Positions 5,512-51,425 of a stretch of 55,157 nucleotides of DNA are shown in pieces. Origin of the DNA: a virus. Taxonomy: Duplodnaviria; Heunggongvirae; Uroviricota; Caudoviricetes. Below the pieces are notes generated by a model. It did not search any database. It saw only the letters and a program-made list of their open reading frames with translations, and was not told the DNA's origin. Position numbers and translations under genes: made by a program. The stretch spans positions 1 through 55,157 of IMG/VR virus record IMGVR_UViG_2721755660_000006. One strand, written 5' to 3'. The first letter of the stretch is position 1. Each line of letters starts with the position of its first letter.

Positions 5512-5537
5512 CCCCGCGCGAAGCGGGGTTATTTTTT
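5512..5537. terminator. Bidirectional rho-independent terminator between lipoprotein gene and J
   Basis: CCCCGCGCGAAGCGGGG hairpin flanked by A-run and T-run, between convergent gene ends. Confidence 0.75.
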
Positions 5538-8500
5538 ATGCCCATGATCCTGAGCTTCTCGTAACAAGCGCAAGACCCGCCCTTCTTTCTGCGCCTGTGC
5601 TGGTGTTAGTGTATTCTTCCGTTATTTTTATAGTCACTTTTTGCGCCGTGATCCCTGCGACACAATGGGATACCGTAAATCCGAATTGAGGCGTTGATGC
5701 AGCCCTTACTACTGAATATGTTTTCTTATTGCCATTAATATCAATTGTTACTTTTATGGATGTTGATTGAGAATATTGATAGTAAGTCAGGTGATAAGGA
5801 ATCATCACAAAAACGGTTTTAGAAAGCGAACTCGAAGACGAATCTGTATAAGTTTTAGTAACAGAACGCGATGCACTGCCCGACTGGTCAGGGAATGATG
5901 CTTGAGGTATAAAGTTAGTTGACGCGACATCGCCTACAAAACTTGTAGCCTCTAGCGACCCTTTAAATTTACCGCTATTTGCATACACCGCCCCCCTTAC
6001 CGTTACGTTGTTAAGCTCCGCGCTACCGTTTTTATTAATCATCCAGCCAGCCGAACCGGCTTTATAGTTGGTTGACTGTATTTGCTGTGCAATTTTAGCT
6101 GTAGTGATTGCTGCATCTGCAATTTTAGCTGTCCCTATTGATGCGTCTTTAATAAACGCTTCGCGCACATACATTGCACCATTGGTGACATAGAAAGGCG
6201 TTTGATATGTGCCGTTTGCGGCGGTCATTAACACGAAGCGGTCAACAAGGAAAATACACTGCGATTGAACGTTAGTCCCGCTACCAGTCAGGCCAAGAGA
6301 CATGCCTGTTGCGTATTTTTTGCCGTTGTTGTCGGTGGCAATCTTGATTGACCATGACGCATCAACGTTACCTTTGAAGTCAGTTAACGCTTTCGATGTC
6401 GTCTCGATCGCCGTGGTGTTCCCGTTAACTGTTACTGTAAGCTGATCAATTTTGGTTGATAATGCCTCGTCCGCAGTTGTCATGGTCTGCGACCATTCCG
6501 TGATGCTTGAGTTTACAGCTTCGAAAGACGCTGAGATCTGGCTGAATTTTTCCGCGCTTGATGTTTCATGCGTAGAAAGTGCTGTTGACACTTCAGATAC
6601 TTTCGAATTAATCGTACTGGTAAGCGATGAGTTAAGACTACTTATTGCATCTGTGCGGGCCTTTGTCTCATCTGCAATAGCTTTGTCGATACGGGTCACA
6701 TTGCTTGTAACCTTGCTATCAAGCGTGCTGATGCTTGCATTCACTCCGCTGATAGCTTCGGTTCTTGCGCTCGTCTCATCTGCGATGGCTTTATCAAGAC
6801 GAGAAACACTTGCGTCTGTTTTGTTTTCAAGGCTGCTTATTGAGGCATTTACTCCGCTTATTGCTTCCGTTCTTGCCTGTGTTTCGTTTGCAATAGCTTT
6901 GTCTACTCGCGCTATCTCGCCTTTGATGTTTGAGTCCATCGTGTTCATCTCTGCGGTGATAGTTTCAAGCGCTTCTGCTGTTGCCTGTTTTTCGTCAGCA
7001 ATAACATTGTCTATACGGTCGATTTGCGCTTTAGTCTCACTGCGCCCTTTCTTGTATTGAGCGGTAAGAGTGACGCGCGTATTAGTTTGAGCAAGCGAAT
7101 TATTGATGAGCGCAAGCGATGCGTTTTGTAGGCTTGCTTTTGTCTGTGCCAGTTCGTTATCGACGTTTTCGCTTGATACCTCTAATGAGTCTATTCTTAC
7201 CTCATGTTTGCCTATTTCATCGGCGTTTTCTTCGACTTTTTTATAAAGGTCTTCAGTGTCTTTTTTAAGCGCGTCTGTGTCTGTTTTAAGGTTGTCTGTA
7301 GCTGTTTTAAGGTCGTCTGTAGCTGTTTTAAGGTCTTCAGTTGCACTTTCGATAATGTCTGCGCGGTCGCCAAGATCCTTAATGTCGCTTACCATTTCCT
7401 TGAACTGGTCTGAATTCAGCACGTCTTTAGTGACATAATCGCTGATTTCATCGAAGTTTTCTGTTGGCTGTCCTGATGCTTCTACGAAGTCAGAAACACC
7501 AAAAGCATTACGTGTGCGCACATAAACGTAATAAGTGTGGCCCGTATTCATGCCGCCGAAAGTCCACTGATACCCGCGCCCGGTAAACTGTGCCGCCGTG
7601 GTTATTTTTGCCGGATCTGTGATCTGGTTTTCCCCTGCATAGTAGAATTCGTACGCTGTATCAGTTGTTAGCGTTGTCTTGCTTATCGGGTACACTGTAG
7701 CCTGAAATACACCTGGAACCCAGTTAACGCCTACTGGCGCTGCTGGCGCACCGATAACAAGGTCAACGATACTTTCGGCACCCTTCATGCCAGTATCATT
7801 TCTTCCGCGAACCCCTAAAGAATACACGCCAGCGTCAATGCCATAAAAATCATAACTGTATTTCGTGGTTTCATAGCTTTTAACCACCGCACCATCTGCA
7901 TTATATATGCGGATCTCAAATGTCATACGATGCGTGGTTGTCTGTGTTTCCCATGTGGCGCGGCATTGAATTGTTTCCGATCCAATGTTTACCACCTTCA
8001 GATTTTCAATGTTCGGCACGCGGAAATGATTAAGCGTATCATTGTTGACCTCAAAGATTGCGCCTTCATCGACTATCGCTTGTTTGTTAGGGTCGTGCTG
8101 TGCGGCTTCGATAGTGTATACGCTGTTATTTTCTGTTTCTGCTACACTGGTGATCCGGCACAAAACGGGTTTTGCCACTTCAGTCGATACAGCAAAAACA
8201 GTGCCGTTTCTAATCCATGACGGGGCCGCCGCCAGTGTGATTTTGTTTCCGCTCACCCCGGTGATCTGATGTTTTTTAAACTTGCCATCGCTATCAAGAA
8301 GGCTGATTGTATCCCCAGCGGCAATATATTTAGCATCAACCTTGTCTACAGTTATTACTTTGCCGTTGTTCGCAACGATGCGACCGCCTAAGCGAGCGCC
8401 AGCGCGGTTATTATCGAGGATCTCGATGATATCCCCTGGCGTAAAGTGAATCGCGTCACGGGCCATTTTAAACGTGAATTTTGACGGCTCGCGTTTTGCT

Positions 8501-9864
8501 GTTTCTATCAGCCATTTGCCCGCGCGGTACGCTTGCCCGCGTGACGTGCACCCGAACGCCTCCAACGTGGTTTCGTTGTAACCATCACGGGCGATTAGCT
8601 CATCATCTGCTACATACTCTTTGGATTGCTCCCAGCCGTTTTCCGGGTCTGTCCATGACACAATCACGGCGTTGTAGCATTCTGCGCGGGCGATACTTGA
8701 ACGAGTAAACGCGCCATCAACGACATTTGCATTTGTAATGGTGGCGATCGGGTCTTGTGGTGCATCAATCATCACGGTAAGGCGTTGCCCGTCCCATAAC
8801 GCGATACCCCTGAACATCCCGGCGATATTGTCCAGTAAGTCGCGGGCGCTCATTTGCTCTGTGATGTAAGCGTTAAGCGTCATGCGAGGCTCAAGGCCGC
8901 CGTAGCCATCATCAACCAACTGGTCGCAGTATTGAGAAAGCGTATACAGTGCGCCGTCATCAACGTCAATATAGCCAGCATGACGGGCAAGGCCGAAACG
9001 CTCGTTTTTAACCAGGTAACGGAAGATCCACGCAGGGTTATTAGTGTAAGCCTGTTTCAAGCCGCCAAGCCATAAACCGGAATAAGTGCGCGTTTCCGGG
9101 TCGTAGTTATCAGGCACGTCGACAATAAGACCACGCAGGTGATAAGTGCGTGTAGGCGTGTCGGTGTACTGGTCGTGGTCAATTACCGCGCCTGCTACAG
9201 CGGTGTGAGGATAAGATAAATTATCGTCGATTATTTCGCTGTAGCTACTCCATCGCGTATCATTTCGCAATAGATCGCTTGTGCTATCAGCCGTTACGCG
9301 GCGAACGCGAATATCAAACGGTTTTTCATCCGGCGCGTTGATAATATGCGCTTCAAGATATTCTCCGCTGATCTTACCCGGACCTATAGTGACGTCTTTA
9401 ACAAGCGTCCACGTAGAAGAAGACGAAGGCTTCACGTCAATCATCATCATGACAGATGTATTATGTTGATTGCTTTGCTCGTCAGATTGTACAAGTGAAT
9501 CGACGCCGATATTCAGGCGCACGCGCGTAACGTTAGGATCTGATACAGTCCTGATTATTGGAGTATCGTGTTTCACCTGAGCGTTAACAATAACGGTTGA
9601 TTCGATGGCGCTAAAACCGTTAATAGGTGATTGATCTAGAGTACCATTGCGCCACGCCACGCTAACGCCAGGGATGCTGGTATTGCCGTTCGCGTCAGTT
9701 ACAGGGGTGTCATTAAGCATAACGCTGTTTAATGGCGCTTTCGTATTCACAGGTCCATAAATCGGACCTTCTGAAATAATATCCAGTACACGATAAAACT
9801 GTTTATGATACAGGTTGTCATTTATCAATGTTGGTGTTTTTGCTTTGCCGCCGCCGCTACTCAT
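5536..9864 (-). CDS. Host specificity / tail tip protein (lambda gpJ-like)
   Basis: 1442 aa; N-terminal region aligns by eye with lambda J (ISEGPI, LRGLIVDVP, FGCTSRGQAYRAGKWLIET); contains internal 36-aa and 7-aa tandem repeats. Confidence 0.9.
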   Translation of the reverse strand: MSSGGGKAKTPTLINDNLYHKQFYRVLDIISEGPIYGPVNTKAPLNSVMLNDTPVTDANGNTSIPGVSVAWRNGTLDQSPINGFSAIESTVIVNAQVKHDTPIIRTVSDPNVTRVRLNIGVDSLVQSDEQSNQHNTSVMMMIDVKPSSSSTWTLVKDVTIGPGKISGEYLEAHIINAPDEKPFDIRVRRVTADSTSDLLRNDTRWSSYSEIIDDNLSYPHTAVAGAVIDHDQYTDTPTRTYHLRGLIVDVPDNYDPETRTYSGLWLGGLKQAYTNNPAWIFRYLVKNERFGLARHAGYIDVDDGALYTLSQYCDQLVDDGYGGLEPRMTLNAYITEQMSARDLLDNIAGMFRGIALWDGQRLTVMIDAPQDPIATITNANVVDGAFTRSSIARAECYNAVIVSWTDPENGWEQSKEYVADDELIARDGYNETTLEAFGCTSRGQAYRAGKWLIETAKREPSKFTFKMARDAIHFTPGDIIEILDNNRAGARLGGRIVANNGKVITVDKVDAKYIAAGDTISLLDSDGKFKKHQITGVSGNKITLAAAPSWIRNGTVFAVSTEVAKPVLCRITSVAETENNSVYTIEAAQHDPNKQAIVDEGAIFEVNNDTLNHFRVPNIENLKVVNIGSETIQCRATWETQTTTHRMTFEIRIYNADGAVVKSYETTKYSYDFYGIDAGVYSLGVRGRNDTGMKGAESIVDLVIGAPAAPVGVNWVPGVFQATVYPISKTTLTTDTAYEFYYAGENQITDPAKITTAAQFTGRGYQWTFGGMNTGHTYYVYVRTRNAFGVSDFVEASGQPTENFDEISDYVTKDVLNSDQFKEMVSDIKDLGDRADIIESATEDLKTATDDLKTATDNLKTDTDALKKDTEDLYKKVEENADEIGKHEVRIDSLEVSSENVDNELAQTKASLQNASLALINNSLAQTNTRVTLTAQYKKGRSETKAQIDRIDNVIADEKQATAEALETITAEMNTMDSNIKGEIARVDKAIANETQARTEAISGVNASISSLENKTDASVSRLDKAIADETSARTEAISGVNASISTLDSKVTSNVTRIDKAIADETKARTDAISSLNSSLTSTINSKVSEVSTALSTHETSSAEKFSQISASFEAVNSSITEWSQTMTTADEALSTKIDQLTVTVNGNTTAIETTSKALTDFKGNVDASWSIKIATDNNGKKYATGMSLGLTGSGTNVQSQCIFLVDRFVLMTAANGTYQTPFYVTNGAMYVREAFIKDASIGTAKIADAAITTAKIAQQIQSTNYKAGSAGWMINKNGSAELNNVTVRGAVYANSGKFKGSLEATSFVGDVASTNFIPQASFPDQSGSASRSVTKTYTDSSSSSLSKTVFVMIPYHLTYYQYSQSTSIKVTIDINGNKKTYSVVRAASTPQFGFTVSHCVAGITAQKVTIKITEEYTNTSTGAERRAGLALVTRSSGSWA

Positions 9865-44619: not shown

Positions 44620-45260
44620 TAACCCATCTCCCCGTTAAGCTCTGCTACCCGGATGTCATAAACATCTTTTGCCTTGATTCGATGCTCCGATCCTTCCGGT
44701 AGTAATTTCCAGCATTTGCCAAATATTTCACGCAGCTTGTTAGCGTCCTGCGCTTTCGCTGCTGCATCACAGAAACGTGCTAATACTTCATCAGGATTTG
44801 GCGGCGCTTTATTCTGCTGCGGTTGTTGTTTTGGTGGGTTTTTCTGTTGTCGCGGCTGCTGGCCTGTCTGCTTCGCGTAAGCATCAGTATCAGGATCGCG
44901 AGCATCATCTATACAGAATAAACCGTTCAAAGCATATTTACGCGCGTAACTTGATGTTGCTCCTGTTAGCTGGCTGGCGTCCATACCCTTCTTGCTTTCT
45001 TCCTCCCTGGCATAAGCAGTTACCGCTATTACGTCTTCACCGTCGCTTAGCGTCGCCGTTGCTTTCACATAATAGCGATTGCCGATCAGGACAATTTCAT
45101 CACTAACAGTCAGCGTGATATTTTGAAGCAGTGGTTTAACCGCCTCTAAAATATCCTCCGCCGACCTGTAATTATATCCACCAAAATTATTACGCTGATT
45201 TTTCGGCGCGTTCAGCGTTTGCTGAATCGTCCATAGCTTTTTATGTAACTCTGTTTTCAC
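44619..45260 (-). CDS. erf: ERF-family single-strand annealing protein
   Basis: 213 aa; NFGGYNYRSAEDILEAVKPLL signature and Gln/Pro-rich C-terminal region; probable GTG start. Confidence 0.8.
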   Translation of the reverse strand: MKTELHKKLWTIQQTLNAPKNQRNNFGGYNYRSAEDILEAVKPLLQNITLTVSDEIVLIGNRYYVKATATLSDGEDVIAVTAYAREEESKKGMDASQLTGATSSYARKYALNGLFCIDDARDPDTDAYAKQTGQQPRQQKNPPKQQPQQNKAPPNPDEVLARFCDAAAKAQDANKLREIFGKCWKLLPEGSEHRIKAKDVYDIRVAELNGEMG

Positions 45261-45379
45261 TATTTAATCTCCCGTGCTGTTAACACTATGTATAAGGCTT
45301 TATTCGCGGCGCTCCACATTTCGGCATCGTGAAGCATTTCCGCTACTGCCAGTTTGAATTGAAGCGCCTGAATAACCAT
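45260..45379 (-). CDS. Hypothetical mini-protein (39 aa) upstream of erf
   Basis: MVIQALQFKLAVAEMLHDAEMWSAANKALYIVLTAREIK; its stop overlaps the erf GTG start. Confidence 0.35.
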   Translation of the reverse strand: MVIQALQFKLAVAEMLHDAEMWSAANKALYIVLTAREIK

Positions 45380-45409
45380 AATGTCATCTCCGGATGTTTA
45401 CATTTTGTA

Positions 45410-45661
45410 TTAATGATAGCGGACTTTATCCAGGGGTTTTTCCCCTAAATGTCGTGGTTGCGTTGCGTGGTAGTAGCTGCCGCTTTCATTTTCCGTATAC
45501 CATTTTACTGATCCTTTGCGACGTTCTTTAATGCTATTTGGTTTGCATCTTTCCTCGTTTGCAAATCGAATAGCTTTATCCACATTGTCTGTTTTATTGA
45601 TTGCAGGTGATGATTTTCTTTCGTTTTCTCTTTTTATCCTTCTGCGTTCCCTGGCATTCAT
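45410..45661 (-). CDS. N-like antitermination protein candidate (arginine-rich motif)
   Basis: MNARERRRIKRENERK resembles the lambda N arginine-rich motif (MDAQTRRRERRAEKQ); first gene leftward of the cI-like gene. Confidence 0.45.
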   Translation of the reverse strand: MNARERRRIKRENERKSSPAINKTDNVDKAIRFANEERCKPNSIKERRKGSVKWYTENESGSYYHATQPRHLGEKPLDKVRYH

Positions 45662-46200
45662 TTTGCTATCACATTTACCATATATAATTGTAACGCTCAT
45701 AATCTGATCTCCGTATATCCTTGATGATACTTAATAAAAAATCATCTTCGTTAATTGCCGCACTTCCAGCGGCTGACCAGATTGTTAATGAGCGGCTTAA
45801 CATCTTTCAACTAATCCCGCAATCATCGCCGTTCCCGGCGTGACCTTGCTCACTCCAAGCAAGCTGACTCGTCGCCTTGCGTGCGGTTTCGTGGGGGATG
45901 TAACGCTTTAAACACCCCATGCGCCTTGTTATCAGTGCCGCTTTCGGTCCCCAATCGGGGAGTTACTCCACGGTTGACAAGGTGTTAAGCCTGATTTTTA
46001 AAGTGCCAGGAAGTTGCTTTTGTTACCTGCGCCCTTCCTTTGACTCGCAATATACGCCCCGTAAAACATCGAGTCAATCCATTTTGTATACTTTTTTAAA
46101 ATATTTTATATGTCATTGATATTTAAATAATAAATAACGTTTTCTGTTTACGTTTTGGTGTTTTCCAGGCAAAGAAAAGCCGCCATTCGGCGGCTAATGT
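45662..46200 (-). promoter_or_regulatory. cI-to-N intergenic region (candidate pL/nutL-type region)
   Basis: About 540-bp non-coding gap between the repressor and the N-like gene; inferred from lambdoid organisation only. Confidence 0.3.
46170..46198 (-). terminator. Rho-independent terminator after the cI-like gene
   Basis: GCCGCCGAATGGCGGC hairpin followed by TTTTCTTTG on the minus strand. Confidence 0.65.
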
Positions 46201-46848
46201 TTATGGCAGGTTTACGATCTTCGCATCAACCACCACGCCTATAATTTTTGATTCTGGATTCATAGGGATTGGCGGATACAGCGGATTCAGCGAACGTAAA
46301 AGCCTTTGACCTCCATCAATAATCAACTGTTTAAACGTCGGTATCTGCCCTTCCTCAAGCTGGGCTATAACCAGTTTGCCGTCAATAGCTGGCGCGTGCG
46401 GGTCAACAAGTATCATCGTCCCCGCCGGGATGCTCAACCCCTGCGGCGCGTTCATTGATTCACCTTTGGCAACCAGCCAGTAACTATCATCTGAACAAAT
46501 AACGCTAGTCGTAACGTGTGGTAATGCTGATCGCCTTGTGTCATCCATATTGTTTACTGTGTCCTTCCAGTCAATAACCGGGTAACTACCTAAATCACGC
46601 GGCGGTGCGGCCTGAAGTGTATTAGAAACAGAATCATCAATGACCATACCATCATGTGTAACAGTGAACTGACGACGCCCAAGCGCCCGCATAATCCGCG
46701 CAATATCTTCAAGATTTGGCTCGCGGCGACCGTTAAGCCAGTGTGACAGGCCGCCTTTAGTTATCCCCATGAGATCTGCGAGTGAATCCTGACTCATGCC
46801 CTGCGCCCGCATGAGCTGCTTTGCTAAGTCATACCATTTTGTTTTCAT
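46201..46848 (-). CDS. CI-like repressor (HTH plus S24 LexA-type peptidase domain)
   Basis: 215 aa; N-terminal HTH (MSQDSLADLMGITKGGLSHWLNG) and C-terminal S24-like autocleavage region with GESM and DGKLVIAQL. Confidence 0.85.
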   Translation of the reverse strand: MKTKWYDLAKQLMRAQGMSQDSLADLMGITKGGLSHWLNGRREPNLEDIARIMRALGRRQFTVTHDGMVIDDSVSNTLQAAPPRDLGSYPVIDWKDTVNNMDDTRRSALPHVTTSVICSDDSYWLVAKGESMNAPQGLSIPAGTMILVDPHAPAIDGKLVIAQLEEGQIPTFKQLIIDGGQRLLRSLNPLYPPIPMNPESKIIGVVVDAKIVNLP

Positions 46849-46869
46849 GTCGCTACCCTATAACCTCAA

Positions 46870-46980
46870 AAAGTTTGATGCAAGTCACAAAACGTGTATT
46901 TTAAGCCTTGATCTTAAAATTCCATTTTGTAAACTTGCAGACAAGGTAAGGCCATACTTGCAAAGACGCAAGGAAAAAGA
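46870..46980. promoter_or_regulatory. Operator-like palindromes in the repressor/cro-position intergenic region
   Basis: Repeated half-site ACTTGC/GCAAGT: GCAAGTCAC near 46873, ACTTGCAGACAAGG near 46930, ACTTGCAAAGACGCAAGG near 46959. Confidence 0.4.
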
Positions 46981-47154
46981 TAACGGAAGGCACAAAAAGG
47001 CACTTACCTTAAGCTCTTTAAAAATCCGGTGTCGCTGCGAAGCGAAAAACAAATATCACGCAACGGCGGGATCTGTTGAGCGGTCAGTCACTGCTATCTA
47101 ATGCTAATGGGATGCCCGCCCGCGCGTTCACTCTAACCATAGGAGAAAAACAAG

Positions 47155-47409
47155 ATGAGTATGCACATGATGAATGAAGCATGGAACGTAAAACTTAACA
47201 GCCCGATCCAAAAACTTGTCTTAATTGCGTTTGCAGAAAAGGCAGACAACAAAGGCCGCGCACATGCTTCACGCGAAGAGATCGCAAAAGTGTGCGAACT
47301 GCCACTGCATACTACTGTTGACGCATTAAATTCATTGATCCGCAAAGGATTCATTAAACGCGCTGACGAATACGGCGACATTTATGACATTGCATTGCCG
47401 GAGGAATGA
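47155..47409 (+). CDS. HTH DNA-binding protein in the Cro position (replisome-organiser-type winged helix)
   Basis: 84 aa; KLVLIAFAEKADNKGRAHASREEIAKVCELPLHTTVDALNSLIRKGFI; stop 3 nt before the next gene. Confidence 0.55.
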   Translation: MSMHMMNEAWNVKLNSPIQKLVLIAFAEKADNKGRAHASREEIAKVCELPLHTTVDALNSLIRKGFIKRADEYGDIYDIALPEE

Positions 47410-47412
47410 TCT

Positions 47413-48471
47413 ATGAAGTGGTTTAAGCATGATAGCGATGCGAACCGCGATGAAAAACTTCAAAACGTTTTATTAGATTATGGCCTGGAAGGGTACGGGC
47501 TTTATTGGTATTGCCTAGAACTAATAACTTATGACGTAGATCAGCACAATCTAACTTTTGACCTACGACATGACGCAAGAATAATTGCGCGAAACGTCGG
47601 ATCTACTGAAAAACGTATAGAAGAAATGATGAAATACTTCATCGAAATTGGTTTGTTTGAATGTTCTCAAGGCCACATAACTTGTTTAAAGTTATTGAAA
47701 AGGCTGGACCAATCAATGACTTCTAAAAGCGCTTACAGGGCCGCCATAAACACAGCGAAGGAGCAATTAAAATTAGAAAAGTTAATCAATCCAACACAAA
47801 AAGGTCATGATAGGGTCATGACCGGGTCAGGAAAGGGTCATGAATTAGAATTAGAATTAGAAGTAGAAAAAGAAAGAGAAAAAGATATATACACTTCGTG
47901 TATTGTCGAAAATGAACAAAAAATGGTCAATCAGGATGGCGTAAACGAAGCGGCATTGCGTTGCCTTGCCTTCTACAACGACAAGGCAGGATGCAAATGT
48001 CGTGATGCTAAGCCATTCGTAGAACTACTGACAGAAACAAAAACACGTAAAGCGTATACGGAGGATGAGATCACATTAGTGATTGAGTGGGCTTTAACCC
48101 AATGGCGTAGCCGTGGTGGAGTACCTAAGCCTATCAACATTTGCCGGGTAACTAAGTTTGATGGGTATTTGGCTGATGCTGAACAATGGCGCAAGCTATC
48201 AGCTACTGTAAACGCTGCCGACGTGGTGGAAGCATTTAACAGCACGTTTGACGGCCTGTTACCACCTGCCGAACTGGATCGGGATCTTGAACGCAAGATC
48301 TATGCGTTCACTGACTACCTGAAAGACAAAAGCATTAACGGCTTTGTCGCCTACTTCGAAACGTTCAAAAACACGGCTTCAGATTTTTACTTCGGCAATG
48401 GCTTCACTGCGACACTTGATTTTCTGCTTAAACCAAAAACGCTACGTGATACGCGCGCTGGCGTTCTTTGA
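47413..48471 (+). CDS. Replication initiation protein / replisome organiser (lambda O-like role)
   Basis: 352 aa; N-terminal MKWFKHDSDANRDEKLQNV...GLEGYGLYWYCLELI typical of phage replisome-organiser N-domains; internal iteron block. Confidence 0.7.
   Translation: MKWFKHDSDANRDEKLQNVLLDYGLEGYGLYWYCLELITYDVDQHNLTFDLRHDARIIARNVGSTEKRIEEMMKYFIEIGLFECSQGHITCLKLLKRLDQSMTSKSAYRAAINTAKEQLKLEKLINPTQKGHDRVMTGSGKGHELELELEVEKEREKDIYTSCIVENEQKMVNQDGVNEAALRCLAFYNDKAGCKCRDAKPFVELLTETKTRKAYTEDEITLVIEWALTQWRSRGGVPKPINICRVTKFDGYLADAEQWRKLSATVNAADVVEAFNSTFDGLLPPAELDRDLERKIYAFTDYLKDKSINGFVAYFETFKNTASDFYFGNGFTATLDFLLKPKTLRDTRAGVL
47795..47895. promoter_or_regulatory. Candidate replication origin: four GGGTCATGA-type iterons plus AT-rich repeat tract inside the organiser gene
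   Basis: AAGGTCATGATAGGGTCATGACCGGGTCAGGAAAGGGTCATGA followed by ATTAGAATTAGAATTAGAAGTAGAAAAAGAAAGAGAAAAAG. Confidence 0.55.
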
Positions 48472-48603
48472 CCAATCACGATCCGCAAAAATCCAAAATT
48501 ACCCACAAAACAACCTCATCAGCGAGCTAAATCGCATGGGGGCTACACTTGCTTACCTTTTTGCGATTAGCTTGTTATGGAGCGTTTCAGAGAGGATTTA
48601 GCT

Positions 48604-48705
48604 ATGAACGGTAAACGCATGTTCGCCCTGGCTTTCGCGATCGCGATGGCTATCGCTGTTAACGTCGCCTTGTTCGGCGGCTTATATCTACTAGTTAATC
48701 CATAA
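48604..48705 (+). CDS. Mini hydrophobic peptide (33 aa)
   Basis: MNGKRMFALAFAIAMAIAVNVALFGGLYLLVNP; GAGAGGA Shine-Dalgarno. Confidence 0.4.
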   Translation: MNGKRMFALAFAIAMAIAVNVALFGGLYLLVNP

Positions 48706-48866
48706 CTACCCTTCTACCTTAAAAATCGAAAATTAGCCACCTGATTGCGCTTCTGGCGCAAAAAAGACACTGCACCCTTACAAGTGGGTTACGCGGTGGA
48801 TTTTTGCGTTGTAGCGCGTTTTACGGAAAATAAATATACATTCTGTAAACCGGAGGAATTAACGTT

Positions 48867-49985
48867 ATGTCACAAAGAAAGATCAGCGATGAACAGTTAA
48901 TCGCTGAACATAATAACGGTCTGACGTATAAACAGATCGCAGAAAAATATGGCATGGCAAAACGCAACGTCGAACGCCTGGGCGCACGGTTGGCGAAACG
49001 CGGTTTAATATCCACGCGCCGCGCACCGGGTTTTGGCGTCAATGCTGAGTCATTGCTCGTCGATAAGGATGGCAATGTGATTATGCGCTGGATTAAAACA
49101 GCCCGTGACCGCGATGAAATGGAAATGCTAATGCAATCTGCTTGTGACGCCTTCACGGAAGAAATACCCCGCGCGGAGGCCGTGCCAGTGCCGGAAATTG
49201 ATTTTCAAAAAAGCCTGGCCCTTTATCCGGTATTCGATCTGCATATCGGGGCGCTTGCTCATAAAGCTGAATGCGGTGAGAGCTACGACACCGGGATCGC
49301 TGAACGCGTGCTAAATGACTTCTTCGACTACGCGGTAGGCGCTGCGCCAATGTCTGAAAAGGCTGTTTTGCTTCTCGGCGGTGATGTGCTTCACACTGAC
49401 GGCCTGTTACCAGTGACGCCATCAAGTAATCACGTTTTAGATTGTGATTCACGCTACGCAAAACTGGTTTATGTGGCGATCCGGTCGGTCCGGCGTGCGG
49501 TCGGGAAGATGTTACTAAATCATAAGGATGTCGAGATCCAGGTATTATCCGGTAATCACGACCAATCAGGTATGATCTGGCTACGTGCTGCGCTGGCGGC
49601 TTTTTACGAAGATGAACCGCGTGTGACGGTTGATGTGTCACCTGCTATCGTCCATCACACACAGTACGGCAAAACATTTCTTGCTTACCACCACGGGCAC
49701 ACTATCAAAAAGCCAGAAAATTTACTTTCTGCCTGCGTTTCTGACTGGCGGGAGGATTTCGGCAAGTCGTCGTCTGTTTACGCTCATTGTGGACACTGGC
49801 ATCACCAACGGCTGATTGAATCATCGTTGGGCGTTGTTGAGTACCACGGCACGTTAGCTGGCAAAGACGCTTATTCAACGAATGGCGGCTGGCGGTCGCG
49901 GCGGCTGGCTGCGGTAATAATTTACAGTCCTGATCATGGGGAAATCGGGCGCTTTGTTTATTACCCTGAATATTCCATTTTGTAA
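48867..49985 (+). CDS. Calcineurin-like metallophosphoesterase with N-terminal HTH-like domain (Mre11/SbcD-like motifs)
   Basis: 372 aa; motifs DLHIG, GGDVLHTDG, GNHD, HHGH, GHWHH; N-terminus LTYKQIAEKYGMAKRNVERL. Confidence 0.65.
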   Translation: MSQRKISDEQLIAEHNNGLTYKQIAEKYGMAKRNVERLGARLAKRGLISTRRAPGFGVNAESLLVDKDGNVIMRWIKTARDRDEMEMLMQSACDAFTEEIPRAEAVPVPEIDFQKSLALYPVFDLHIGALAHKAECGESYDTGIAERVLNDFFDYAVGAAPMSEKAVLLLGGDVLHTDGLLPVTPSSNHVLDCDSRYAKLVYVAIRSVRRAVGKMLLNHKDVEIQVLSGNHDQSGMIWLRAALAAFYEDEPRVTVDVSPAIVHHTQYGKTFLAYHHGHTIKKPENLLSACVSDWREDFGKSSSVYAHCGHWHHQRLIESSLGVVEYHGTLAGKDAYSTNGGWRSRRLAAVIIYSPDHGEIGRFVYYPEYSIL

Positions 49986-50003
49986 ACCGGAGGCGATGCC
50001 ATA

Positions 50004-51425
50004 ATGATAACCGAACAAGTAAACTCATTGCGGCAAGAAAGAGAATCAGCGGTTATCGGTGGCCTGCTGTTAGGTGGGCTTACTCCTAACGCGCAAGATG
50101 TTCTCGCTACGCTTGATCCTGAAGTGTTCACTATTCCGCTGTATAAGCGGGCTTTTGAAATTATCCGGGCGCAAGCCAGAAACAGAAATCTTATCGACGC
50201 CTTGCTGGTTGGTGATGAGATTGGCAACGAAAATTTTGTACCGCTGATGCAAACGGCGCGATCGTGTCCTTCTGCTGCCAATCTGAAAGGATATGCGCGA
50301 CTACTACAGGAAGAACACCAGCGGCGGCAAATGCTGGAACTAATGGAAGACATTCGCTACAAACTGGAAACGGGGACGCTTGAAGTCGTCAGGGAGACGA
50401 TGAAAGATTTTGATTCCCGGTATTCAAAATTAAAGGTAACAAAAGATCAAATTATCCCGGTGCTGTTGCGCGATGCGGTCCAGGAATACACGGAAGTGTT
50501 AAGTAAACGCATGGAGTGTGGCGTGAACTCTGACAACATCAAAACAGGGATTGACCCACTCGACGAAATGTTAGGCGGCATTAACGCTACTGATCTGGTG
50601 CTTATCGCCGGACGCCCAGGGTCTGGTAAATCGGCGTTGGCGTTGGCAATTGCCCGCGCGGCGGCTGAACGTCCATACCCTGGCGGCGAAGGTCAGCGGG
50701 TCGGCGTTTTGCTGTTCACGCTTGAAATGTCGCTCGATCAGATGACTGAACGTGCTATCGCTGGCGCTGGGAACTTATCAACGGATTGCCTACGTAATCC
50801 GGTAAAACTGGATGACGAAGGTTGGGCGCACGTCGCCCAGGGAATGAGTGCCCTTGCCGATCTCGATGTGTGGATTGTTGACGCATCGCAGTTAACGGTC
50901 GAGGAAATACGCGCCACCGTCGAACGGATGAAACAGGACCATCCTAACCTGGGGATGGTAATGATTGACTACATCGGGTTAATGAAGCTGGCTAAGGCCG
51001 AACGTCATGATCTCGCCGTAGGGCAATTGTCGTGGTCATTGAAAATGATGGCGAAAGAGTTGCGCGTGCCAGTGGCGGCGCTGGCGCAATTATCCCGCCG
51101 CGTTGAGGAACGACCGAACAAGCGCCCGAACAATTCTGATCTGCGTGATTCCGGTAATCTTGAACAGGACGCAGACCGGATCATCATGGTCTACCGCGAC
51201 GGCTACTACAACGAACAATCGGTTGCCCGCGAATATATGGAGATCATCGTTTCAAAAAACCGTCACGGGAAAACGGGGACTGTTTACCAGCGGTTTGACG
51301 ATAACGGCAACATCATCCCATGCGACCAGGCCCGCGCGGCGTCCGCTTGCATTCAGTCAATGCAACAACGTCCGGCGGCAAGTCGATTCTCCACACGAAA
51401 CAGCCAGAACAACGCATCTTTTTAA
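50004..51425 (+). CDS. Replicative DNA helicase (DnaB-like)
   Basis: 473 aa; Walker A GRPGSGKS, then MIDYIGLM and SQLSRRVEER motifs. Confidence 0.85.
   Translation: MITEQVNSLRQERESAVIGGLLLGGLTPNAQDVLATLDPEVFTIPLYKRAFEIIRAQARNRNLIDALLVGDEIGNENFVPLMQTARSCPSAANLKGYARLLQEEHQRRQMLELMEDIRYKLETGTLEVVRETMKDFDSRYSKLKVTKDQIIPVLLRDAVQEYTEVLSKRMECGVNSDNIKTGIDPLDEMLGGINATDLVLIAGRPGSGKSALALAIARAAAERPYPGGEGQRVGVLLFTLEMSLDQMTERAIAGAGNLSTDCLRNPVKLDDEGWAHVAQGMSALADLDVWIVDASQLTVEEIRATVERMKQDHPNLGMVMIDYIGLMKLAKAERHDLAVGQLSWSLKMMAKELRVPVAALAQLSRRVEERPNKRPNNSDLRDSGNLEQDADRIIMVYRDGYYNEQSVAREYMEIIVSKNRHGKTGTVYQRFDDNGNIIPCDQARAASACIQSMQQRPAASRFSTRNSQNNASF

Follow-up and report, generated by a model that had tools for sequence, protein, structure and literature searches.

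The window analysed here is the 55,157-nucleotide stretch (positions 1 to 55,157) of IMG/VR virus record IMGVR_UViG_2721755660_000006, a temperate coliphage of the mEpimmI group. Inside the gene of its replication initiator, a protein of 352 amino acids (aa), lie four short direct repeats (iterons) followed by an A+T-rich tract, which by analogy with lambda and P22 are very likely the replication origin of the phage. The array itself is almost certainly a cis-acting DNA element tied to the N-terminal domain of the initiator, a member of the Pfam family Lin1244_N (DUF4373), as comparison with its relatives indicates. An origin inside the initiator gene is a textbook principle, and the layout is that of lambda and P22. 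What is new is the DNA-binding family (a domain of unknown function), the compact one-turn spacing of the iterons, and the breadth of the family. The gene and the elements within it are:

47413..48471, plus strand: initiator gene, 352 aa, with the putative origin inside (open reading frame (ORF) list; Pfam Lin1244_N; PHROG families)
47413..47739, plus strand: N-terminal Lin1244_N/DUF4373 domain, residues 1-109, predicted winged-helix iteron binder
47803..47843, plus strand: iteron array, period exactly 11 bp
47803-47810, plus strand: iteron 1, GGTCATGA
47814-47821, plus strand: iteron 2, GGTCATGA
47825-47832, plus strand: iteron 3, GGTCAGGA, one mismatch
47836-47843, plus strand: iteron 4, GGTCATGA
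47843..47888, plus strand: A+T-rich, purine-biased tract of about 47 nucleotides (nt), candidate DNA-unwinding element from its composition and duplex stability
47889..47905, plus strand: 17-nt island ATACAC-TTC-GTGTAT-TG, a 6-bp dyad directly 3' of the tract
48208..48468, plus strand: last 87 aa, a homologue of the P22 gp18 C-terminus and predicted to recruit the helicase

The sequence at the array reads aaaGGTCATGAtagGGTCATGAccgGGTCAGGAaagGGTCATGAattaga, and within ORF 47413-48471 the repeats encode KGHDRVMTGSGKGH-ELELELEVEKEREKD. Array, tract and island are all located in the inter-domain linker of the 352-aa protein. Tandem Repeats Finder reports a period of 11 with 4.2 copies at 47799-47844, and a second repeat search agrees on the 11-bp register. 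The former also reports (GAATTA)x4.5 at 47842-47868 and then AGAAAA-type repeats up to 47889. The tract is composed of seven nnnAGA hexamers (ATTAGA three times, AGTAGA, AAAAGA, AAGAGA and AAAAGA). Its A+T content is 81% and its top-strand purine content 79% (47843-47890), and it ranks second to third among the least stable 40-60-bp duplex stretches of the window (top 0.07%). An earlier note on this DNA had described four repeats and then an AT-rich tract with ATTAGA repeats inside the coding sequence, and had placed the probable origin there; the repeats and the tract are confirmed by the sequence and the repeat searches, and the placement is supported. The span it gave, 47795-47895, takes in array and tract but misses the conserved island at 47889-47905, and the linker, which it had called Gly-rich and acidic, is indeed acidic but only moderately rich in Gly (4 of 14 residues).

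The exact plus-strand octamer GGTCATGA occurs four times in the 55-kb window, three times in the array and once elsewhere. Only one other phased array of four 8-mers is present, a 21-bp peptide repeat in an ORF of 1442 aa, so the array in the initiator gene is the sole one whose period is not a multiple of 3. No comparable array (periods 8-24) turned up in 300 Markov-simulated windows, and the 11-bp spacing is invariant across 35 E. coli-type copies. The 21-bp repeat (3.5 tandem copies, 7263-7335) lies in ORF 5536-9864 on the minus strand; as 21 bp are 7 codons, it is a peptide heptad repeat, probably in a tape-measure protein.

Three arguments, namely a mismatch with the codon frame, fixed synonymous sites and helical phasing, indicate that the element is selected as DNA and not as peptide. 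Successive copies of the 11-bp unit fall in three different frames, and their octamers are translated as G-H-D, (R)-V-M-T, G-S-G and G-H-E. Synonymous choice was assessed in 62 distinct genes, at positions chosen by amino acid only, with the N-domain of the same genes as background. In these counts, which lack phylogenetic independence, the His of 'HD' in the linker is CAT in 61/61 cases (background 56%), Val before Met is GTC in 63/63 (18%), Ile before Met is ATC in 15/15 (25%) and Ser is TCA in 48/53 (26%). The domains are only about 60-70% identical, so that free synonymous sites would be expected to be scrambled. Over the 150 nt that follow the domain, TCATG is 13-fold denser than elsewhere (18.2 versus 1.4 per kb). 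Distances between motifs in the relatives are quantised in whole helical turns: 11 bp (57 pairs), 21-22 (43) and 32-33 (42), with further values of 42-44 and 53.

The purine tract has a periodicity of its own. It is 6 nt in E. coli and 5 nt outside E. coli, where the autocorrelation is highest at lags 5 (0.62) and 10 (0.59), versus 0.28-0.44 at other lags up to 12. The 5-nt period is out of step with the codons, and the tract may therefore be a second binding element; its periodicity suggests a second repeated element, beyond mere AT-richness. In the loci L051-L126 the roughly 60 nt that follow the last iteron hold a purine-rich tract built of the pentamers AAGAT, TAGAT and AGAAT.

Relatives of the N-domain were collected from phage records, from IMG/VR (333 confirmed hits, of which 80 were fetched) and from GTDB genomes (32 loci). 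Phages of Vibrio, Pantoea, Pseudoalteromonas and Pseudomonas share 71-75% identity with the window over the first 109 residues, and the remainder of the protein is unrelated. The gene that follows the DUF4373 gene in these phages encodes a P-like loader, a DnaC-like ATPase or a DnaB helicase. The preceding gene is of the Cro/HTH_3, KilA-N, Rha-ANT or T5orf172 type and in none of them of the HTH_36 type, the family of the small gene that precedes the initiator gene in the window. Of 58 distinct IMG/VR segments, 54 have TCATGA repeats in 11-bp phase and an AGA-rich purine tract downstream of the domain. More broadly, the array follows the Lin1244_N/DUF4373 domain in nearly all inspected loci, across differing C-terminal domains and neighbours, and almost every relative has an equivalent of the purine tract after its iterons. 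Since the array is kept in phages whose upstream gene is not HTH_36, it goes with the DUF4373 domain, and these comparisons point to this domain as its partner protein.

Array and N-domain co-occur and co-vary over more than 80 distinct loci from many phyla. The loci L048 and L049, with an N-domain 81% identical and changes in the predicted recognition helix and wing, carry five CCATGG repeats with a period of 11. A monophyletic clade (L102-L105, L110 and L111) has GTCCCGACA, likewise with a period of 11, and L101, sister to L100, has GGAGTGAGTCA. CCGGA/CCCGA-type repeats are found in L113, L123 and L125/L126, whose N-domains are 30-49% identical. All loci with variant repeats have AGAAGAGAATAGA-like tracts after them. 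A diverged domain thus goes together with a changed repeat sequence, while the layout is kept. At the usual site of the array, the DUF4373 genes of L082 (about 2330-2530) and L099 (about 920-1150) contain a T5orf172/GIY-YIG-like segment (proteins P0055 and P0101), which may be a mobile endonuclease-type insertion at the origin; PF10544 is combined with PF14297 in some database proteins.

The initiator itself is a fusion of two parts. A Pfam scan of the 352-aa protein returns Lin1244_N alone (aa 3-87), at 43.2 bits versus a gathering cut-off of 25, and PHROG assigns the protein to 'replication initiation O-like' families. In RefSeq, 'Lin1244/Lin1753 domain-containing protein' is the name given to the copies in E. 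coli prophages. Neither the Phage_rep_O DNA-binding domain (PF04492) nor a replisome-organiser domain of the Phage_rep_org_N type was matched by Pfam, and a PHROG match to 'replisome organizer' is weak (8.5e-5). The earlier note had spoken of a replisome organiser gene: it is a replication protein gene that holds the repeats, but one in which a Lin1244_N/DUF4373 domain is fused to a gp18-like C-terminus rather than one that fits the Pfam organiser model. A PDB sequence search and an NCBIfam scan gave no matches. For the whole protein, AlphaFold from the single sequence reached a mean predicted local distance difference test (pLDDT) score of 36.6; with an alignment, the N-domain gave a usable model. 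No published function was found for the DUF4373 domain, no published description of a Lin1244_N/DUF4373 initiator family, and none of the origin in the literature on DUF4373, Lin1244 and the mEp021 origin. The genome paper on the mEp group does not mention iterons or an origin of replication (PMC11893012).

Over 47100-48500 the window shares 99.6% identity with Escherichia phage MagusPhagus and 93% with mEp515, and of 5426 complete E. coli genomes, 27 carry the same module as a prophage. The neighbouring features, in which HTH stands for helix-turn-helix, are:

46201-46848, minus strand: cI-type repressor (Peptidase_S24 and HTH_3)
300 bp between the cI-type repressor and the 84-aa HTH_36 gene: control region
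47155..47409, plus strand: HTH_36 gene, 84 aa, which opens the rightward early operon (Pfam HTH_36, 1.8e-7)
48867-49985, between the initiator and helicase genes: 372-aa HTH/exonuclease-like gene (also termed HTH/metallophosphatase-like)
50004..51425, plus strand: phage DnaB-type replicative helicase, 473 aa, presumed client of the origin complex (Pfam DnaB_C, 1.1e-75, and a DnaB N-terminal domain)

Small ORFs lie between the initiator gene and the 372-aa gene. The 372-aa protein has an N-terminal HTH and a PHROG match to 'DNA repair exonuclease' (phrog_704, 5e-138), and is conserved throughout the mEp group; in mEp021, mEp515 and mEp010 this region also carries an HNH or homing endonuclease gene, and the window is without it. 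Pfam and PHROG scans detected no separate P- or DnaC-type loader in the window.

A close known counterpart of the replication genes is the gene 18/12 system of P22, with which the window shares a gp18-type C-terminus and a gp12-type helicase. The last 87 aa of the initiator are 35% identical to residues 181-271 of P22 gp18 (E 7e-14), tblastn with this domain gives matches at the gene 18/12 junction of P22-like phages, and the helicase is 56% identical to P22 gp12 over 453 aa. In the middle of P22 gene 18, TCGGTAAAAC-type repeats, an A-rich tract and a palindrome (CCCCCTAAAGGGGG) follow one another in the same order as here. However, the N-domain of P22 gp18 is Phage_rep_O (PF04492, 6.9e-38) and not Lin1244_N/DUF4373, the P22 repeats are about 24 bp apart whereas 8-bp cores recur every 11 bp in the window, and the window helicase gene is located 1.5 kb downstream of the initiator gene, with the 372-aa gene in between.

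Origins of direct repeats inside the gene of their own binding protein are also known from SPP1 (oriL in gene 38) and from lactococcal P335-type phages. These differ in protein family and repeat type, and homology to them was looked at only through the weak PHROG match given above. For lambda it has been established by experiment that gene O carries iterons and an AT tract midway along its length, that an O-some forms and that the AT tract is unwound (PMC7466680, PMC3349717). Binding specificity is ascribed to the N-terminal domain of O and recruitment of the partner to its C-terminal domain, and the number of iterons alters the length of the linker (PMC7466680, PMC3349717). The lambda origin resembles that proposed here in that four repeats bound by the initiator, and then an AT-rich tract of some 40 bp, lie midway through the initiator gene, on a rightward early transcript and downstream of a cI-controlled region. 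It differs in that the lambda iterons are 18 bp long with spacers, that O recruits the host DnaB via P whereas the window phage has its own DnaB-type helicase, and that in the Pfam scan the N-domain of O has no sequence similarity to the window initiator. The likeness to lambda ori within O, which the earlier note had drawn, holds for every prediction made at the level of sequence: selection on DNA, co-variation with the N-domain, exchange as a cassette, and homology to P22 gp18/gp12.

Cassette exchange is seen within the mEp group. Six sequenced relatives have the C-terminal 180 residues of the initiator in common, but the initiators of mEp021, mEp554, mEp013, mEp010 and mEp044 have an HTH_36 N-domain. 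The mEp021-type initiators occupy the same genome position, their C-terminal domain is more than 90% identical (about 72% in mEp013), and the order of N-domain, four iterons, AT tract and island is the same. In these phages, however, the four iterons are 22-23-bp dyads (GGTAGTGTCACnGTGACACC), followed by an AT tract of their own at the equivalent position, and the island is read in another frame. DNA homology between the window and the mEp021-type phages stops at 47148 and restarts at 47914/47950 (48157 for mEp013). What is exchanged is therefore the stretch that runs from the small HTH_36 gene through N-domain and iterons to the AT tract. Lambdoid replication-specificity modules are known to behave in this way. 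One type of helicase-partner domain is thus combined with three unrelated DNA-binding domains (Phage_rep_O, HTH_36 and Lin1244_N), each with its own iterons.

The two cassette types have versions of the 84-aa HTH_36 gene that are only about 40% identical. This gene is the first after the immunity control region and is swapped along with the origin cassette although all the phages share one immunity type, which argues against a Cro-like role and for a role linked to replication.

The 17-nt island ATACACTTCGTGTATTG (window 47889-47905; L002 4731-4747) is common to cassette types with unrelated flanks. It is present in mEp021, mEp013 and mEp044, where the flanking 45 nt on each side are unrelated, and with a changed loop in mEp010 and mEp515. 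The loop varies (TTC, TAC or TCC) and the 6-bp arms are constant. Its codon phase is 2 in the window (IYTSCIV) and 1 in mEp021, mEp013 and mEp044 (NTLRVLE). Reading of the island in differing frames amid unrelated flanks provides a fourth, local argument for a DNA element. In mEp554 it is replaced by a TACCCCCTT-like sequence, which resembles the TACCCCCT repeats of P22. As a stable hairpin the island was rejected (-2.7 kcal/mol, z-score -1.0, not significant).

From these parts a mechanism can be proposed. The initiator would be made from the rightward early transcript, and its N-domains would fill the four sites along one side of the helix, assembling into an oligomeric complex like the lambda O-some. 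Strain induced by this complex would melt the adjoining AT tract, and the gp18-like C-terminus would then bring in the gp12-like DnaB helicase of the phage, on the pattern of the P22 gene 18/12 system. Opening may be aided by transcription across the site, as it is in lambda.

Several other explanations of the repeats were weighed. They could be a by-product of a flexible low-complexity linker, arising by slippage in a Gly/Glu/Lys-rich spacer and serving no function as DNA. The region does encode an inter-domain linker, AlphaFold 2 confidence falls beyond residue 128, and the ELELEL/EKEREK part varies by in-frame indels in the E. coli copies. An 11-bp period, however, yields no peptide repeat, the unit being read in three frames, and the synonymous positions of the motif are invariant over the 62 diverged relatives. 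L048/L049 keep the period and yet encode a different peptide (PWHNHDAAMAQPWHNH), the purine tract outside E. coli has its 5-nt period, and the genuine peptide repeat of the window has one of 21 bp, all of which make a linker by-product extremely improbable. Nearly the same can be said of the idea that repeats and island are recombination joints for module exchange and not functional sites. Mosaic boundaries are indeed near (47148; 47914/47950; 48157 for mEp013), and the island is common to otherwise unrelated flanks. Joints could account for the island. They would not account for a helically phased array of four units, nor for its conservation, with synonymous sites fixed, among phages of Vibrio, Bacteroidales, Spirochaetes and others, and we give this idea hardly any credence.

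A binding site for some other job, such as autoregulation, a transcriptional roadblock or copy control/partition, with replication starting elsewhere, is unlikely. Plasmid iterons also act in autoregulation and handcuffing, and a less stable AT-rich region is present at 46077-46136. Lambda iterons have a replication-silencing phenotype that does not need the AT tract (PMC3349717). Against this, an AT/purine tract directly after the array in nearly all relatives across phyla is the signature of iterons plus an unwinding element, the array is mid-gene and away from a promoter, and the initiator has a gp18-type helicase-partner end. The AT-rich region at 46.1 kb is without repeats and overlaps a promoter-like site by the cI terminator, and the window is without any second iteron-like array. 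If the origin is real, its binder might still be the small HTH_36 protein (47155-47409) and not the DUF4373 domain. The gene is inside the exchanged cassette (homology break at 47148), its product matches the N-termini of PHROG 'replication initiation' families, and the large mEp021-type protein carries an N-domain of the HTH_36 type. Exclusion of this protein by conservation within the group was dropped since homology stops at 47148, and the exclusion rests on the marine phages: these and the Pantoea phages, with the same DUF4373 domain and TCATGA arrays, have upstream genes other than HTH_36. Moreover, changes in the iterons track changes in the DUF4373 domain, so that binding by the HTH_36 protein is very unlikely.

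Some observations count against an origin recognised by the DUF4373 domain. Origin activity is assigned by analogy, and the HTH_36 gene, being swapped with the cassette, is within the mEp group alone still eligible as the binder. The winged-helix model has moderate confidence, Foldseek E values were never better than 0.05, and the fold is very common. Three loci from Lachnospiraceae and Treponema metagenome-assembled genomes (L114-L116), in which DUF4373 is 49% identical, show no recognisable array or purine tract. The least stable stretch of the window is 46077-46136 and not the A+T tract, the length of which is polymorphic, in frame, among the E. coli copies (33, 39, 42 or 45 nt). The dyad at 47889-47905 is too weak for a hairpin and absent from mEp554, and no DnaA box was found near the array, the nearest perfect one being at 45576.

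Further features of the region were recorded. The window has two matches to the DnaA-box consensus, of which the only exact one (TTATCCACA, 45576-45584) is 2.2 kb left of the origin, within a minus-strand ORF (45410-45700) whose product has an arginine-rich stretch, NARERRRIKRENERK, resembling N-type antiterminators. The least stable duplex of the window extends over 46062-46160 (G+C 13-25%), just past the cI terminator (46178-46195); it holds zero repeats and a promoter-like site on the minus strand (46077-46049). Promoter and terminator scans gave nothing above chance. An 8-bp inverted repeat made by iterons 1 and 2, with a T-run after it on the minus strand (47823-47803), was scored as terminator-like. 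Folded as single-stranded DNA, the 51-nt array is much more stable than its shuffled versions (-9.2 kcal/mol, z-score -6.9). The palindromic TCATGA cores probably account for both. An Rfam scan of 45000-50000 returned no RNA family.

More tentatively, a wider proposal can be made. Lin1244_N/DUF4373 could be the origin-recognition domain of a large family of phage initiators in Proteobacteria, Bacteroidota, Spirochaetes, Firmicutes and candidate phyla, with unusually short one-turn sites and a separately conserved tract of AGAnn pentamers (hexamers in E. coli) on the purine strand. This tract would perhaps be bound as single-stranded DNA by an initiator filament, in analogy to DnaA on DnaA-trios, and the whole would be a portable cassette that recombines with many helicase-recruiting C-termini and has repeatedly switched specificity.

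For the mEpimmI coliphages, a prevalent group of gut phages, the analysis places the putative origin within about 100 bp. It also gives DUF4373 a testable function, that of an iteron-binding origin-recognition domain. The domain occurs on over 330 viral contigs and at 32 loci of bacterial genomes, and the layout is common to almost every one that was inspected. If the proposed function is true, origins in many uncultured phage genomes would become annotatable from sequence alone, and the matched variants of domain and iteron (TCATGA, CCATGG, GTCCCGACA and others) would be a natural series in which the evolution of initiator specificity can be studied.

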